The notes below the pieces were generated by a model, which saw only the letters and a program-made list of their open reading frames with translations, was not told where the DNA came from and did no database searches. Positions 4,814 through 55,583 of a DNA stretch of 64,000 nucleotides are shown in pieces. Origin of the DNA: Gammaproteobacteria bacterium (GTDB lineage: Bacteria > Pseudomonadota > Gammaproteobacteria > UBA4575); contig JAJDYY010000008.1 of NCBI GenBank assembly GCA_022824965.1, positions 449,482 through 513,481 on the forward strand, written 5' to 3'. A program made the translations under genes and the position numbers. Positions within the stretch are counted from its first letter, which is position 1. Each line of letters begins with the position of its first letter.

Positions 4814-6100
4814 ATGAAACAACTCCTGTATATATTGGGTGTCGCGCTGCTGATTTCCGGCACCAGCGCAAGTGCGCTTGACCGGATCGTGGCGGTCGTG
4901 GAAAACGATGTCGTCATGGAAAGCGAGCTCCGCCAACGCATACAAGTGCTGGTAAGACAATTCAACCAAAACCGCAGCGCACTTCCTCCCAGAGACGTCC
5001 TGATCGAACAGGTACTGCAGCGCTTAATCGTGGAACGCCTGCAACTGCAGCTTGCAGAGCGCCGCGGGATACAGATCGATGTGCTGACCCTGGATCAGGC
5101 AATGCGCAGCCTGGCAAAGCGCAACAACATGAACCTCGAGCAGTTTCGTGACACTCTGCTGCAACAGGGATTGGATTATGTCGTGTTCAGAAACCAGATC
5201 AGGGACGAGATGATCATAGAGCAGTTGCGCCAGCGCATCATTGATCAGAATATCCAGGTATCAGAAGCCGAGATTGAGGATCTGCTCACTCGATCGGAGA
5301 GTGAGCTGTTGCAAAAAGAACGTGAATATCATGTAGCACATATACTGATTGCACTTCCGGAGGGCCCGACACCAGAACAAGTAAAACATGCCGCAAACCG
5401 TGCCTCAGCAGTACATGAGAGGGCTGCATCCGGCAACAATTTCACCCAGCTGGCCATTGCCGCTTCCGATGCCCAGGATGCACTACAGGGCGGTGACCTG
5501 GGTTGGCGGGATCAGGCACAACTGCCCCAGCCTTTCTTGCAGCAAATCAACCAGATGAGCCCGGGGCAAGTCAGTAAAATCATTCAGAGTCCTTCGGGAT
5601 TTCATATCTTCAAACTTCTGGATCAACGCGAATTCCAAAAAGAAACCGTGGTGGACCAGGTGCTGGCACGCCATATCCTGATCCGCACGAATGCCCTGCT
5701 GTCTGAAGAAGCTGCCGAGACAAAACTGAAAGACATCAAGTCAAGGGTAGAGGCGGGTGAGGATTTTGGAGAACTTGCAAAGGAATACTCCGAGGACCTG
5801 AGCAGCGCTTTCAATGGCGGTCAATTGGGGTGGTCGGTCTCGGGTACTTTTGTACCCGAATTCGGGAATGTTGTTGACAGCCTGGAGCCCAAGCAGATCA
5901 GTGAGCCGTTTCGCACCCAGTTCGGCTGGCACATTGTGCAGTTACTGGACGTGCGCAAACATGACAATACCAGGGAAGCAATTCGTGCCGAGGCTCAGGC
6001 ACAGATCAGGCAACGAAAAATTGAGGAAGAAACCGAGCTGTGGCTCAGGCGACTTCGTGACGAAAGTTATATAGAAAATCGGTTGCACTCCTCTAACTGA
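4814..6100 (+). CDS. surA: Periplasmic chaperone / peptidyl-prolyl isomerase SurA
   Basis: Signal peptide, SurA N-terminal domain and two parvulin-like PPIase domains (GGDLGW...FHI, GGQLGW...WHIV). Conserved position between lptD and pdxA. Confidence 0.9.
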   Translation: MKQLLYILGVALLISGTSASALDRIVAVVENDVVMESELRQRIQVLVRQFNQNRSALPPRDVLIEQVLQRLIVERLQLQLAERRGIQIDVLTLDQAMRSLAKRNNMNLEQFRDTLLQQGLDYVVFRNQIRDEMIIEQLRQRIIDQNIQVSEAEIEDLLTRSESELLQKEREYHVAHILIALPEGPTPEQVKHAANRASAVHERAASGNNFTQLAIAASDAQDALQGGDLGWRDQAQLPQPFLQQINQMSPGQVSKIIQSPSGFHIFKLLDQREFQKETVVDQVLARHILIRTNALLSEEAAETKLKDIKSRVEAGEDFGELAKEYSEDLSSAFNGGQLGWSVSGTFVPEFGNVVDSLEPKQISEPFRTQFGWHIVQLLDVRKHDNTREAIRAEAQAQIRQRKIEEETELWLRRLRDESYIENRLHSSN

Positions 6101-23443: not shown

Positions 23444-23652
23444 AACTCAATACTGAAACCGGATACCTCTGCGGTACAGGTGAGTTGCTAGATACATACC
23501 TTGAGCCTATTTTTTTACTCAGGGACAATGCTGTAAAAAATGTTGTTGTGCAACCCCAGAAAAATGGGAAGCCTGATGCATTTTTCAGTTCTCCCACTTG
23601 AACCTCTGGTTCAAGGGCTATAGCGACCACAGTATTCGTGGAGTGTATCCGC
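23444..23652 (+). ncRNA. ssrS: 6S RNA (SsrS)
   Basis: Intergenic segment directly downstream of zapA, as in E. coli. It contains the conserved 3'-side hairpin CACUUGAACC-UCUG-GUUCAAGGGCUAUAGC (E. coli: CACCUUGAACCAAGGGUUCAAGGGUUACAGCC) and the 5'-side CCUUGAGCCUAUUUUUUUAC element (E. coli: CCCUGAGCCGAUAUUUCAUAC). The terminal regions can pair (caatactg / cagtattcg). The ends are approximate. Confidence 0.7.
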
Positions 23653-24166: not shown

Positions 24167-24300
24167 ATTGACGCTTGGCGACTTCAGTTTTTGTGCGTAT
24201 TTTTAAAATTAAAAACATCGCAAAAAAACTAGTATTTATATATCAAACGTATATACTTTAGCGCGACAACAACTCAACGTTTATTGTTTGGAGGGGGGTA

Positions 24301-24654
24301 TTGATGGCCATCAAGAAACGTAAGACCGCTGCAACTGCCAGACGTAAGACTGCCAAAAAAGCCGTTAAGCGTAAGACCGCTGCAACTGCCAGACGTAAAA
24401 CTGCTAAGAAAGCTGTTAAGCGTAAGACCGCTGCAACTGCCAAACGTAAAACTGCTAAGAAGGCTGTCAAACGTAAAACCGCCAAGCGCAAGACCGTCAA
24501 AAAAGCTGCCAAGCGTAAGACTGCAAAACGCAAGACCGCCAAGAAAGCCGTTAAGCGTAAAACCGCCAAGCGCAAGACCGTCAAAAAAGCTGCCAAGCGT
24601 AAGACTGCAAAACGCAAGACCGCTAAAAGAGCTGTCAAACGCAAGGCCCGCTGA
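24301..24654 (+). CDS. Histone H1-like, Lys/Ala-rich repetitive nucleoid-associated protein
   Basis: 117 aa, about 40% Lys/Arg, built from KRKTAATARRKTAKKAV-type repeats. Strong GGAGGGGGG RBS 7 nt upstream and a terminator immediately downstream. Confidence 0.75.
   Translation: MMAIKKRKTAATARRKTAKKAVKRKTAATARRKTAKKAVKRKTAATAKRKTAKKAVKRKTAKRKTVKKAAKRKTAKRKTAKKAVKRKTAKRKTVKKAAKRKTAKRKTAKRAVKRKAR
24317..24650 (+). repeat. Coding tandem repeats (3 x 51 nt, then about 4 x 42 nt) inside the histone-like gene
   Basis: Direct inspection shows cgtaagaccgctgcaactgccagacgtaa[g/a]actgc[c/t]aa[a/g]aaagc[c/t]gttaag repeated three times, then cgtaa[a/g]ac[c/t]gc[c/a]aa[g/a]cgcaagaccg[t/c]caa[a/g]aaagc[t/c]g[c/t][ct]aag units. 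Confidence 0.8.
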
Positions 24655-24675
24655 CGCAGAACCAACCGCACCATA

Positions 24676-24704
24676 TAAAAAAGGCTCTTTATTGAGCCTT
24701 TTTT
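24676..24704 (+). terminator. Rho-independent terminator (possibly bidirectional, shared with convergent ilvA)
   Basis: AAAAAAGGCTC-tttatt-GAGCCTTTTTT: a GC stem flanked by an A-run upstream and a T-run downstream. Lies between the histone-like gene (+) and the ilvA stop (-). Confidence 0.6.
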
Positions 24705-24759
24705 ATGCAGGCAAGAAACCCCTCTTCAAGGTTCGTTTTGCTTGAAATTTCAATGGGTT

Positions 24760-26277
24760 CTACCCCAGAAACAATTTGTACACTGGATTCCCGGTTTCCT
24801 CCCAGCAGCGGTATCCTAGCTCCGCCAAGAACTGATTAAAGCGCTCTCTGTGTTCTGTGGGCACTTGGATCCCTGCCAACACACGCCCATAAGCTGCACC
24901 GTGATTGCGGTAGTGAAATAAGCTGATATTCCATTCCTGCCCGATCATTTCCAAAAAGTCCAGCAGTGCGCCTGGCCGCTCTGGAAATTCAAAGCGAAAT
25001 AGAATTTCATTCTCCAGGGCTGGACTTCGACCCCCTACCATGTGCCGCAAGTGAAGTATTGCAACTTCATTATCAGAGATATCCAGTGCAGGATATCCGG
25101 ACGCTTCCAATGTTTGTAACAACTGATTTTTTTCGGTTCCCGCATCCTCTACGTTCACGCCCAGAAAGATCTGGGCTTCCTCAGTATCTGCATAACGATA
25201 GTTAAATTCCGTAACCCCCCTGGATCCGAGCAATCGGCAGAAAGTCAAAAAACTGCCTGGCTGTTCAGGGATTGTCACTGCAAACAGGCACTCCTTTCGT
25301 TCTCCAAGCTCCGCGCGCTCTGCTACATGACGCAAACGATCAAAATTCATATTTGCGCCGCTATTGACTGCTACCAGTAATTTGTCTGTGACCCCTTCTT
25401 TGTCAACGTACTGTTTGATCCCCGCCAAAGCCAACGCCCCTGCTGGTTCGAATAGCGTGCGTGTCTCATCAAAGAGGTCCTTGATGGCAGCACAGATTTC
25501 ATCTGTACTTACCAGCAGCACATCATCGACATGTTGTCTTGCAATTTCGAAAGTCTTTTCACCTACGCATCGCACAGCAACTCCATCGGCAAAAATCCCG
25601 ACCGAATCCAGTTCCACTCTTTTTTTGGCCAGCAACGCATTATGCATGGTCGGCGCATCCTGCGGCTCGACCCCGATCACTTTTATGTCGGGCCGATAGT
25701 GCTTGATGTAGGATGCCATGCCGGCAATAAGCCCACCGCCTCCAACCGGAACAAAGATCGCGTCTATGCCAGACGGAATTTGCTGCAGGATCTCCAGTGC
25801 CACAGTTCCCTGTCCCGCAATTACATCTTCATCATCATAGGGATGCACGTATGACAGCCCCTGATCTTCTGCAAGTTCCTGAGAACGCAAAAAGGCCTCA
25901 TCGTAGGTGTCACCATGTAAAACGGCATTCGCCCCCATGCTGGTGACCGATTGCACCTTGATGGATGGGGTAGTACAGGGCATTACGATTGTGGCGTGAA
26001 TACCCAGTTTTTTCGCGGCAAGTGCTACGCCCTGAGCATGATTTCCTGCCGATGCAGCAATCACTCCTCGTTTTCTTTCCGCATCCGGCAAGTGTGCGAT
26101 TTTGTTGTAGGCACCTCTGAGCTTGAAGGAAAAAACGCTTTGCTGGTCTTCTCTCTTCAGAAAAATACGATTGGCAAACCGGCTGGACAGGGTCGATGCA
26201 AAATCAAGTGCAGACTTGACGGCAACGTCATACACCTTGGCATTTTCAATTTTGCTTACAAGTTTTTTGTTTGCCAT
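24760..26277 (-). CDS. ilvA: Threonine dehydratase, biosynthetic (two ACT-like regulatory domains)
   Basis: PLP-fold motif (FSFKLRGAYNKI, lysine underlined by context), full 505-aa length with a C-terminal regulatory region. Confidence 0.9.
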   Translation of the reverse strand: MANKKLVSKIENAKVYDVAVKSALDFASTLSSRFANRIFLKREDQQSVFSFKLRGAYNKIAHLPDAERKRGVIAASAGNHAQGVALAAKKLGIHATIVMPCTTPSIKVQSVTSMGANAVLHGDTYDEAFLRSQELAEDQGLSYVHPYDDEDVIAGQGTVALEILQQIPSGIDAIFVPVGGGGLIAGMASYIKHYRPDIKVIGVEPQDAPTMHNALLAKKRVELDSVGIFADGVAVRCVGEKTFEIARQHVDDVLLVSTDEICAAIKDLFDETRTLFEPAGALALAGIKQYVDKEGVTDKLLVAVNSGANMNFDRLRHVAERAELGERKECLFAVTIPEQPGSFLTFCRLLGSRGVTEFNYRYADTEEAQIFLGVNVEDAGTEKNQLLQTLEASGYPALDISDNEVAILHLRHMVGGRSPALENEILFRFEFPERPGALLDFLEMIGQEWNISLFHYRNHGAAYGRVLAGIQVPTEHRERFNQFLAELGYRCWEETGNPVYKLFLG

Positions 26278-53582: not shown

Positions 53583-55583
53583 TCAGGCCGGATCAAGCGG
53601 ATGGCGGTGCCTCACCACTCTGAATTTAAACTTCTTGTCGGGACTGAGCTTGGGCAGGGGGTTGATTCTGAGCTTGTAATCGGCCGGCACCATCTCCAGT
53701 TCCAGGTGGCGTGCAACCAGGAGCACGTTGATGGCCATCTGCAATTCGGTCCAGCGGGCACCACCACACATGTGCGTACCGACGCCGAAGGGTACGTACA
53801 CACCCGCAGCTTGCTTGTGCTCGTTTCTCGGTGGCGCATACCTTTCAATATCAAAGGTCTCCGGGTCCTTGAAGTATTTCTCGTCAAAATGAACTGCGGG
53901 AAAAGCGATCAGTATTGTACTGTAGGCCGGTATCTCCATGTCCTCGACCTCAAATGCGTTCATGGCGGTACGCAGGTGCATGGGGATCACCACATGCAAA
54001 CGTAACACCTCCATCACAAACCGGCGTGCCACATCGATCGTCGACGGATTGATTTTTTCGGCATCCGGATCTCCGTCGGCAAAGAGAGCATCCGCCTCAT
54101 CCGCAAGCTTGGCAAGCAAGTCCGGATTCGCCAGCATTTCATAAATTGCGAATGCCATGGCACTTCCCAGGTAGTGTCCGGCAATGATCGGTGCGATGAA
54201 CGCAAACCCAAGGTCGGTTTCCGGCAGGAACTGAGGATCGCCCTGGTGCAACTCCATTAGGTCATCCACCAGGTCCCGGCGTTTACCCTCCCGTTGCGCG
54301 GGCGTGTGCGTTGCGTGGATCTGTGCATACAGATCCAGAACGCGTGCATGGGCCCGCTTCATGGCCGGGGTGCGCAATGTGAACTTGGGCAGGATCCGGA
54401 ACACGTGAACGAGCAGAGCCCGGTATTCGAAGGCCAGCAACGCATCGAGTATGTCACCGGGATCGATGCTGACACTGAGCTGGGCAATCTGCTCACCGAT
54501 CAGTCGCTGGGACGCCATCTCCCCGGCGATCACGTTGCCCACTCCCCAGTTTGCAAACGTACGTCTGCCCATGGCCAGTACTTCTGCCATCCGGTCCTCG
54601 ACCACTGCCCGGGAATTGCCCGCCTGCACGGCCTTGCGCATGCGGAAGTGATCTGCACCATCCATGCTGGCAATCGACCGTGCGGTTCCCCACTCTCTTT
54701 GAAAGCCGCCAATATAATCCTGGGTGCGAAGGTAAAGGCGGCCCTTATGTCCGACCCAGCGATTCAACTCTGCACTGGCAAACACCACCATGTCGCGACC
54801 GCCGGCATTGATTCTGAAAACCGGTCCCAGTTCCCTGGCTTTTTCCGCCATGAACTTCGGCAGGTTTCCCGAACGAAACGTCTTCGATGAAAGCATGCCG
54901 AACAGTCCGAAGGTCGGCAGCGGCGGCCGCTGTACGGAACGAATACTTGCAGGGGGGCGATAGGAACTGCGTACGGCGGAAGCGATCGTCCGACCGATCA
55001 GGTCCATCCCGCTGAAAAGTTCGATGCGTTTCTCAGCGAGTTCGTATTCCTCGGGTTCCAGCAGGGCACGCATCCCGTCACAGCTGTTCATCAGGCCGAT
55101 GATGGCAAAGTCGCGGGGGTCCGGAATCTCGTCATCCAGCAGCGCCCGCGAAATCCTGCTCTTGATTTCTTCGCCGGTTTTGCCATCGACTGTCGGGTAG
55201 CGCCGTGAGCGGGCAACCTTGCCCGACAGGGACCAGAATCCGCCTTCATCGGCATTGAGTATGCCCATCTTCACCAGGCGATCGAGTGTCATGTTGCTGA
55301 TCTCATCCGAGCGCTTGGCGATGCGTTCGACCCAGTACTGGGGAGAATGTACCTGCTTGTCCTGGGCGATTTCCTCCAGCGTGGGATCCAGCAGAGGATC
55401 TCCGAGAGGCGTCGGATCGAGCAGGGTGAGCGTTTCGAGGTCCGAATCTATCCGGTTTTCGAATGAAAGGTCGATCAGCACGCTGCCGGCCAGCACGCAC
55501 GACATTTTCCACTCCGGGATGGGAATGAAATAGCCTGTCTTCTCGCTCAGCAACAACAGGAGTATTTCTTCAGCAAATCGCAT
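53583..55583 (-). CDS. Fusion protein: N-terminal GOLPH3/GPP34-like domain (about aa 1-205) plus C-terminal cytochrome P450 (about aa 215-666)
   Basis: The N-terminus aligns with GOLPH3/Vps74 family hallmarks (AEEILLLLLSEKTGY...CVLAGSVLIDLSFENRI...GDPLLD...QYWVERI...LVKMGIL...EEIKSRISRALLDD). The C-terminus has P450 K-helix ExxR (EVLRLH), a PERF-like FDIERY and the heme-thiolate loop FGVGTHMCGG. It is a single uninterrupted 666-codon frame. Confidence 0.75.
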   Translation of the reverse strand: MRFAEEILLLLLSEKTGYFIPIPEWKMSCVLAGSVLIDLSFENRIDSDLETLTLLDPTPLGDPLLDPTLEEIAQDKQVHSPQYWVERIAKRSDEISNMTLDRLVKMGILNADEGGFWSLSGKVARSRRYPTVDGKTGEEIKSRISRALLDDEIPDPRDFAIIGLMNSCDGMRALLEPEEYELAEKRIELFSGMDLIGRTIASAVRSSYRPPASIRSVQRPPLPTFGLFGMLSSKTFRSGNLPKFMAEKARELGPVFRINAGGRDMVVFASAELNRWVGHKGRLYLRTQDYIGGFQREWGTARSIASMDGADHFRMRKAVQAGNSRAVVEDRMAEVLAMGRRTFANWGVGNVIAGEMASQRLIGEQIAQLSVSIDPGDILDALLAFEYRALLVHVFRILPKFTLRTPAMKRAHARVLDLYAQIHATHTPAQREGKRRDLVDDLMELHQGDPQFLPETDLGFAFIAPIIAGHYLGSAMAFAIYEMLANPDLLAKLADEADALFADGDPDAEKINPSTIDVARRFVMEVLRLHVVIPMHLRTAMNAFEVEDMEIPAYSTILIAFPAVHFDEKYFKDPETFDIERYAPPRNEHKQAAGVYVPFGVGTHMCGGARWTELQMAINVLLVARHLELEMVPADYKLRINPLPKLSPDKKFKFRVVRHRHPLDPA

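Follow-up and report, generated by a model that had tools for sequence, protein, structure and literature searches.

A length-polymorphic tandem-repeat gene of uncultured Gammaproteobacteria predicted to encode a stand-alone histone H1-like polycation

Background

Bacterial polycations resembling eukaryotic histone H1 are poorly understood and tend to escape homology-based annotation. Expression of two of them, Hc1 and Hc2, in E. coli is reported to condense the nucleoid. Chlamydial Hc2 (hctB) ranges in length from 165 to 237 aa by duplication and deletion of its repeat elements and binds both DNA and RNA, with an affinity for RNA reported to be above that of Hc1 (PMC2848022). BpH1 of Bordetella pertussis is a free-standing protein of consecutive lysine-rich short repeats, varies from 182 to 206 aa between strains and is dispensable (PMC2848022). 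Hc2-like proteins, grouped with BpH1, are also present in Burkholderia, Herminiimonas and Ralstonia. The KPAA repeat tail of AlgP is a DNA-binding element that also associates with polyphosphate granules, on which no protein is more strongly enriched than AlgP (net charge +55); spacing of the granules depends on the tail (PMC9239181). A related activity on RNA has been described for PhaF, the C-terminal domain of which binds specific mRNAs and activates their translation (PMC12818456).

Here we describe a repeat gene at 24301-24654 of a 64,000-nt stretch of DNA, referred to below as the window and meaning the whole of the sequence analysed, from a gammaproteobacterial lineage that is entirely uncultured. 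A preliminary description of this DNA had likened the product to H1 tails and to the bacterial H1-like proteins, and both composition and architecture bear this out, fitting H1 tails and the Hc2/BpH1/AlgP class. The gene would encode a small stand-alone polycation of at least 13 kDa, made up entirely of in-frame tandem repeats and with no folded domain.

Results

Anatomy of the repeat gene

The features of the locus are collected in Table 1 and together they point to a real, monocistronic protein gene with a putative promoter, leader, ribosome-binding site, coding sequence and terminator. The length of 117 aa given for the product in the preliminary description does not hold, as a scaffold gap lies inside the gene and translation from the ATG at 24304 yields 116 aa. 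This ATG is the more likely start because the GGAGG motif sits 9 nt upstream of it; the TTG at 24301, which would give 117 aa, was considered as a start and is unlikely on account of the same spacing. The ribosome-binding site that had been proposed is corroborated, and it is kept in all 26 orthologues described below.

Table 1 Features of the repeat gene and its surroundings in the window
Feature	Coordinates	Strand	Details
6S RNA (ssrS)	23463-23648	+	Rfam RF00013, 74.4 bits
Promoter-like element CTAGTA-N17-TATACT	24229-24257	+	-35-like 24229-24234, -10 24252-24257; A-rich tract before
5' leader with Shine-Dalgarno GGAGG (24290-24294)	24258-24303	+	GGAGG 9 nt before ATG 24304
Predicted polycationic repeat protein CDS	24304-24654	+	ATG 24304, TGA 24652-24654; 116 aa in window
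51-nt tandem array	24319-24482	+	3.2 copies, 92% matches (Tandem Repeats Finder)
84-nt tandem array	24436-24645	+	2.5 copies as given, 87% matches (Tandem Repeats Finder)
Artificial junction	24610-24611	.	100-N gap of source scaffold sits here, absent from window
Predicted intrinsic terminator hairpin, A-/T-runs at flanks	24674-24707	.	Folding energy compared with shuffles

With respect to the repeats themselves, the three 51-nt units that had been proposed were recovered, whereas the second tract, described before as about four copies of 42 nt, is better represented by 2.5 copies of an 84-nt unit, the 42-nt reading giving 4.9 copies with only 76% matches in Tandem Repeats Finder. Each 84-nt unit (28 aa) is composed of two diverged 42-nt halves. 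The repeats were rightly called nearly identical at the DNA level, and the two full 84-nt units do not differ at all. In codon register the 51-nt unit encodes the 17 aa RKTAATA(R/K)RKTAKKAVK and the 84-nt unit the 28 aa RKTAKRKTVKKAAK + RKTAKRKTAKKAVK. Differences between copies are largely synonymous, with 14 synonymous and 2 non-synonymous among the 51-nt copies and 27 and 11, respectively, among the 42-nt copies. No other tandem array with a score of at least 60 is present in the 64-kb window.

The product as read in the window uses only seven residue types (M, I, K, R, A, T and V), of which lysine accounts for 36%, alanine 25%, arginine 16%, threonine 15% and valine 6%, so that K+R reaches about 53% with no acidic and no aromatic residues. 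Its net charge is about +60 and its mass 13.1 kDa.

Downstream of the stop codon the earlier claim of a dedicated terminator finds support in a 14-bp hairpin (-20.2 kcal/mol, z = -4.95) followed by a T-run, with equally good folds in 0 of 200 shuffles. As the hairpin lies between the repeat gene and the convergent ilvA (24760-26277, minus strand) it would be able to terminate transcripts of both. Upstream, the sequence CTAGTA-N17-TATACT occurs once in the 64-kb window compared with 0.07 matches expected by chance, and we infer that it acts as a promoter. The leader that follows has less structure than shuffled versions of it (z = +1.42). Neither the promoter motif nor the terminator was picked up by a generic scan for sigma-70 promoters and terminators, the promoter having been missed because its -35 element is weak; both were found by comparative alignment and folding. 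The promoter motif is kept across about 24 species despite a poor match of the -35 element to TTGACA, and is preceded by an A-tract. Close relatives additionally keep an AGTAT...ATACT inverted repeat, which might be an operator.

The gene is presumably transcribed and its product abundant. Codon usage was considered as a proxy for expression and dropped: the repeat gene avoids G- and A-ending codons for arginine, threonine, alanine and valine, a bias that the window's ribosomal protein genes, rpsI and rplM, do not share, and codons inside repeats cannot be counted as independent.

The locus order is zapB-zapA, 6S RNA, an EVE-domain gene, the repeat gene, ilvA and rpiA. A zapA-ssrS arrangement is known from enterobacteria, and the position of the 6S RNA after zapB-zapA matches the enterobacterial order except that the EVE-domain gene comes next here. 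Elsewhere in the window a 666-aa ORF (53583-55583, minus strand) matches both the GPP34 and the cytochrome P450 Pfam families, which is an unusual pairing, and adjoins a Rieske/KshA_C oxygenase gene and an RND efflux operon.

An assembly gap lies within the gene

Exact look-ups of neighbouring proteins traced the whole window, at 100% identity, to about 288,947-353,046 of KELL22-1_SAMN22237329_METAG-scaffold_9, an ENA metagenome scaffold. The scaffold interval spans 64,100 nt as against 64,000 in the window, the surplus being a single 100-N run inside the repeat gene. Because this sole gap falls between window positions 24610 and 24611 the join at that point is artificial, the window being the scaffold sequence minus its gap, and the fact that the join is in phase is an artefact of the assembler cutting a repeat loop. 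As the gap that was taken out lay inside the gene, the 84-nt copy number and the length of 116 or 117 aa read from the window are unreliable.

Every short-read assembly of the window's population breaks within the repeat gene, with a 100-N gap in three cases (L002-L004) and contigs ending inside the gene in others (L005, L007-L010, L093 and L094), and no gene had been called at the repeat locus of the gapped scaffolds. One contig of the same population, L009, whose flanks are 99.97% identical, reads at least 130 aa before it ends short of the 3' end of the gene; the protein would therefore reach at least 144 aa if its terminus is like the others. N-gaps also lie inside the gene copies of MAGs of other species (L028, L053), making this a recurrent assembly breakpoint. 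Short-read metagenome assemblies thus systematically break or collapse this gene, and stripping Ns from scaffolds leaves plausible yet unverified in-frame genes with artificial joins within their repeats.

Conservation of the locus

Using the upstream EVE-domain protein we fetched 80 species-representative loci, about 30 of which carry a K/R-rich ORF directly 3' of the EVE-domain gene on the same strand. The detailed analysis was carried out on 26 syntenic orthologues from uncultured gammaproteobacterial species. All 26 begin with MA(I/V/T/A) and continue with basic residues, in most cases K-(K/R)-(K/R), and have GGAGG 6-9 nt before the ATG, and the position of the stop directly after the array is conserved among them. 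The promoter motif, in the form CT(A/G)GTA-N17-TATACT, is found at 24 of the 26 loci, 34-47 nt before the ATG. Even in L014, a relative whose flanking genes are only about 79% identical, hardly any of the 85 nt preceding the ATG has changed.

Beyond the N-terminus it is charge and composition that are conserved and not sequence. Only about 7 N-terminal residues are shared (MAIKKRK in the window) and the remainder is repeat, with K+R at 40-68% across the 26 orthologues, no D or E in 25 of them, and essentially nothing outside the set K, R, A, T, V, P, S and I. Three orthologues (L032, L034, L050) are built of AAPKKK-type units and are nearer to H1 tails. The gene is intact and free of Ns in eight chromosome-level records (L011, L014, L016-L018, L020, L023 and L025).

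These data bear on whether the locus is a protein gene at all, as opposed to a non-coding repeat, an antisense ORF (24258-24674, minus strand) or an assembly artefact. Owing to low complexity most orthologues also have open antisense and +1 frames, synonymous and non-synonymous changes stand in a similar ratio in the antisense frame whose wobble positions coincide, and a scaffold gap does sit at the locus. We nevertheless regard such an explanation as very improbable, as the plus frame alone is open in 26 of 26 orthologues with the antisense frames interrupted by stops in several, the promoter motif, GGAGG, ATG, MAIK, array-end stop and terminator are conserved and all oriented on the plus strand, repeat periods are always multiples of 3, and chromosome-level records hold the gene without a gap. 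The antisense shadow ORF would encode 138 aa rich in leucine, arginine and alanine and covers the whole gene. Substitution ratios and the openness of reading frames were set aside as a test of strand, being non-discriminating in a sequence with shared wobble positions and low complexity.

The gene is missing at the locus of a related complete 1.83-Mb chromosome (L022), where, in the 10 kb examined around it, a spacer of about 250 nt (5454-5701) alone separates the EVE-domain gene from ilvA. It is therefore not indispensable there.

Repeat turnover and length variation

Each of the 26 orthologues has its own DNA-level array, of 2-14 copies with an internal identity of 67-100%. The periods of these arrays (21, 24, 27, 30, 36, 42, 45, 51, 54, 60, 63, 66, 69, 81, 84 and 144 nt) are multiples of 3 in every orthologue, and the units are lineage-specific, examples being KRKTAKRKTAKKAV, KRKTKRKTKRKTA, RKVKRKVKRKVKRRAKAKRKTK, AAPKKKVAAKKK, RKKAAPK and AKPKTSAAAKRKVAKKTA. 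Orthologue proteins range from 91 to 239 aa. The variation in length that had been anticipated for this gene is borne out among relatives even when only chromosome-level sequences are taken, which span 99-239 aa (L011, 144; L014, 143; L016, 149; L017, 239; L018, 150; L020, 99; L023, 108; L025, 121 aa). Two orthologues with a common unit, L032 and L034, carry 6 and 12 copies and have lengths of 91 and 163 aa, respectively. Within-array identity often exceeds the identity of flanks between species, as in L014 where the array is 98% internally identical compared with about 79% for its flanks, which means that the arrays were rebuilt, or made uniform again, once the species had separated. Charge and composition, rather than the precise order of residues, appear to be what selection acts on.

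Within the window's population we compared contigs from short-read assemblies with flanks 98.6-100% identical. The comparison of repeat copies across strains, proposed earlier as a check, does reveal differences in these short-read data: the L009 allele is at least 28 aa longer than the window, L008 and L010, from two independent samples, share a 9-aa in-frame deletion, and L003 and L004 have one 17-aa unit in place of the three in the window. The junction of the deletion in L008 and L010 is not buildable from the window's k-mers, and since the sequences beside it share only 3 nt it is not a de Bruijn chimera. A length-polymorphic intragenic tandem-repeat gene with in-frame copy changes among near-identical genomes is thus supported, at the level of short-read assemblies.

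The preliminary description also held that the locus could be phase-variable, and a contingency locus at which slippage toggles expression on and off might be expected to have the near-identical intragenic repeats observed here, or a homopolymer such as the G6 run at 24293-24298 between the ribosome-binding site and the start. Such switching is not supported, and we hold it to be very improbable. Slippage alters length and not frame because every repeat period in all 26 orthologues is divisible by 3, and no complete allele is out of frame. The promoter spacer has a constant length of 17 nt. Within the population the G-run is the same in all contigs that cover it; it reads G4AG in the close relatives L011-L014 and is shorter still in more distant orthologues. 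Replication slippage or unequal recombination between near-identical 42-84-nt units would instead generate length polymorphism with no on/off switching.

Family searches and structure prediction

The protein matched no family in a Pfam-A hmmscan at E ≤ 10, and it gave no match in NCBIfam or PHROGs profile searches or in a sequence search of the PDB at E ≤ 10. The composition correction of HMMER penalises sequences of this kind, so the absence of Pfam matches is weak evidence and profile and sequence search tools are nearly blind here. A phmmer search against 1.84 billion representatives returned only three weak low-complexity matches and a word-indexed search of 5.8 billion proteins only one, these few being low-complexity look-alikes or doubtful ORFs. 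Exact look-up found no protein identical to the 116-aa or 117-aa product or to eight orthologue sequences, and a scan of metagenome contigs with the conserved start region recovered only one contig, of 1.6 kb, which stops within the gene. With Pfam, NCBIfam, PHROGs and the PDB all unmatched, "H1-like" is a label of composition and architecture and not one of homology.

From the single sequence AlphaFold2 predicts one continuous helix with a pLDDT of 94.8. As a helix with a charge of +60 cannot be stable alone, we read this model as indicating only a helical propensity that may be expressed once the charge is neutralised. Helix formation on charge neutralisation has been proposed for H1 tails.

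Discussion

The conservation of charge and composition without conservation of sequence fits a polyanion binder that acts by non-specific electrostatics. We consider it probable, at roughly 60%, that the product is an abundant, sequence-non-specific polyanion binder, among whose possible targets DNA and the nucleoid rank first. Chromosomal DNA would be the primary target, with charge neutralisation, bridging and compaction of the nucleoid, and RNA and polyphosphate may be extra ligands. Such a mode of action has been reported for Hc2, BpH1, the C-terminal tails of AlgP and PhaF and that of histone H1. We infer the expression level of the polycation, its ligand and its function in compaction from the properties of the gene and its relatives. 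Some observations count against a nucleoid role. Profile searches in Pfam, NCBIfam and PHROGs and the PDB search provide no link to any characterised DNA-binding family, codon usage does not follow that of rpsI and rplM, the K+R content of 53-68%, much of it arginine, is above the roughly 40% described for the pentamers of Hc2, and proline, present in H1 and AlgP tails, is missing. The similar tails of PhaF act on RNA and translation (PMC12818456). The chromosome that lacks the gene at this locus likewise speaks against an indispensable role.

A different emphasis would make the protein mainly an RNA- or ribosome-binding polycation, that is, an RNA chaperone or translation modulator and not a nucleoid protein. 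The mRNA binding and translational activation by the PhaF C-terminal domain with its disordered KPAA region (PMC12818456) and the RNA affinity of Hc2, reported to be greater than that of Hc1 (PMC2848022), are in keeping with this, as is, on weak positional evidence, the location of the gene beside the 6S RNA gene and near rpsI and rplM. The complete replacement of unit sequence between sister species argues against specific RNA targets, and the protein has no partner domain, for which reasons we hold a principally RNA-directed role to be unlikely.

By analogy with AlgP the protein could also act on granules of polyphosphate or another polyanion, as their scaffold or tether. Its charge of about +60 is comparable with the +55 of AlgP, which is enriched on such granules (PMC9239181). 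Since it has neither the N-terminal domain of AlgP nor a KPAA motif, and no ppk or other polyphosphate gene is found among the genes called in the 64 kb, we judge this role improbable.

The KRKT and KRKA motifs resemble classical nuclear localisation signals and some of the related MAG records are small genomes of 1.7-2.8 Mb, features that would suit an exported polycation, whether an antimicrobial or cell-penetrating peptide or an effector aimed at a host nucleus. We hold this proposal to be very improbable, as the protein, with only the seven residue types listed above, has no signal peptide or hydrophobic segment, and the neighbourhood, zapB-zapA-6S-EVE followed by ilvA-rpiA, is of a housekeeping kind with no adjacent secretion genes.

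A more speculative extension, to which we attach a low probability, concerns the small-genome clade as a whole. Here the gene would be kept at a fixed chromosomal site, with its promoter, leader and first seven codons almost frozen and its body a disposable cassette, repeatedly rebuilt by tandem amplification and selected for nothing but an extreme, protamine-like positive charge (K+R of up to 68%). The product could then dominate among the proteins that condense the nucleoid or buffer polyanions in these cells. If true, repeat number would be tuned as a quantitative trait and the clade would offer a natural system in which to learn how the properties of bacterial chromatin or condensates depend on the length of a disordered polycation. 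The synteny-anchored family from about 30 species, in which the promoter, leader and N-terminus stay the same and the repeat body is rapidly rebuilt, illustrates cleanly that charge and length can be under selection in place of sequence.

Comparison with known systems

The eukaryotic H1 C-terminal tail resembles the window protein in being Lys/Ala-rich, acid-free and of low complexity, and in being expected to fold only on a polyanion. It differs in that the window protein has 16% arginine, 15% threonine, no proline and a charge density of 53%, and the winged helix of the linker histones H1/H5 (PF00538) is not matched either in Pfam or by sequence in the PDB at E ≤ 10. The tails of AlgP (AlgR3) and PhaF from Pseudomonas, which bind DNA, polyphosphate or RNA, are likewise similar, but in these proteins a folded N-terminal domain is joined to KPAA (KPVA, KTAAA) repeats, whereas the window protein lacks proline and KPAA as well as any additional domain. 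Hc1 and the Hq1 type of Coxiella (PF07432) have a conserved non-repeat N-terminal dimerisation domain that is lacking here, in line with the absence of a Pfam match to that family.

Hc2 shares with the window protein a stand-alone architecture that is largely repeats, a richness in lysine, arginine, alanine, threonine and valine, short basic motifs nested in longer DNA-level repeats, and in-frame variation in length. The two differ in their motifs, Hc2 having pentamers of two basic residues and three drawn from A, V, T and P, and the window protein KRKTA/KKAV units of 5+5+4 residues with three basic residues per pentamer, in the distinct non-repeat C-terminal domain that Hc2 has and the window protein has not, and in their hosts, Chlamydiae as against Gammaproteobacteria. 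The HC2 family (PF07382) is unmatched by the window protein in the Pfam-A hmmscan at E ≤ 10, an absence weakened by the composition correction. BpH1, compared here through its published description, belongs to Betaproteobacteria and has another genomic context, but it shows the same kind of size polymorphism and its dispensability parallels the absence of the gene from L022. The protein most likely works as members of the Hc2/BpH1 class do. What is new is a putative member of this class that is itself defined by synteny; the established picture of the class is unchanged, length polymorphism having already been described for Hc2, BpH1 and AlgP.
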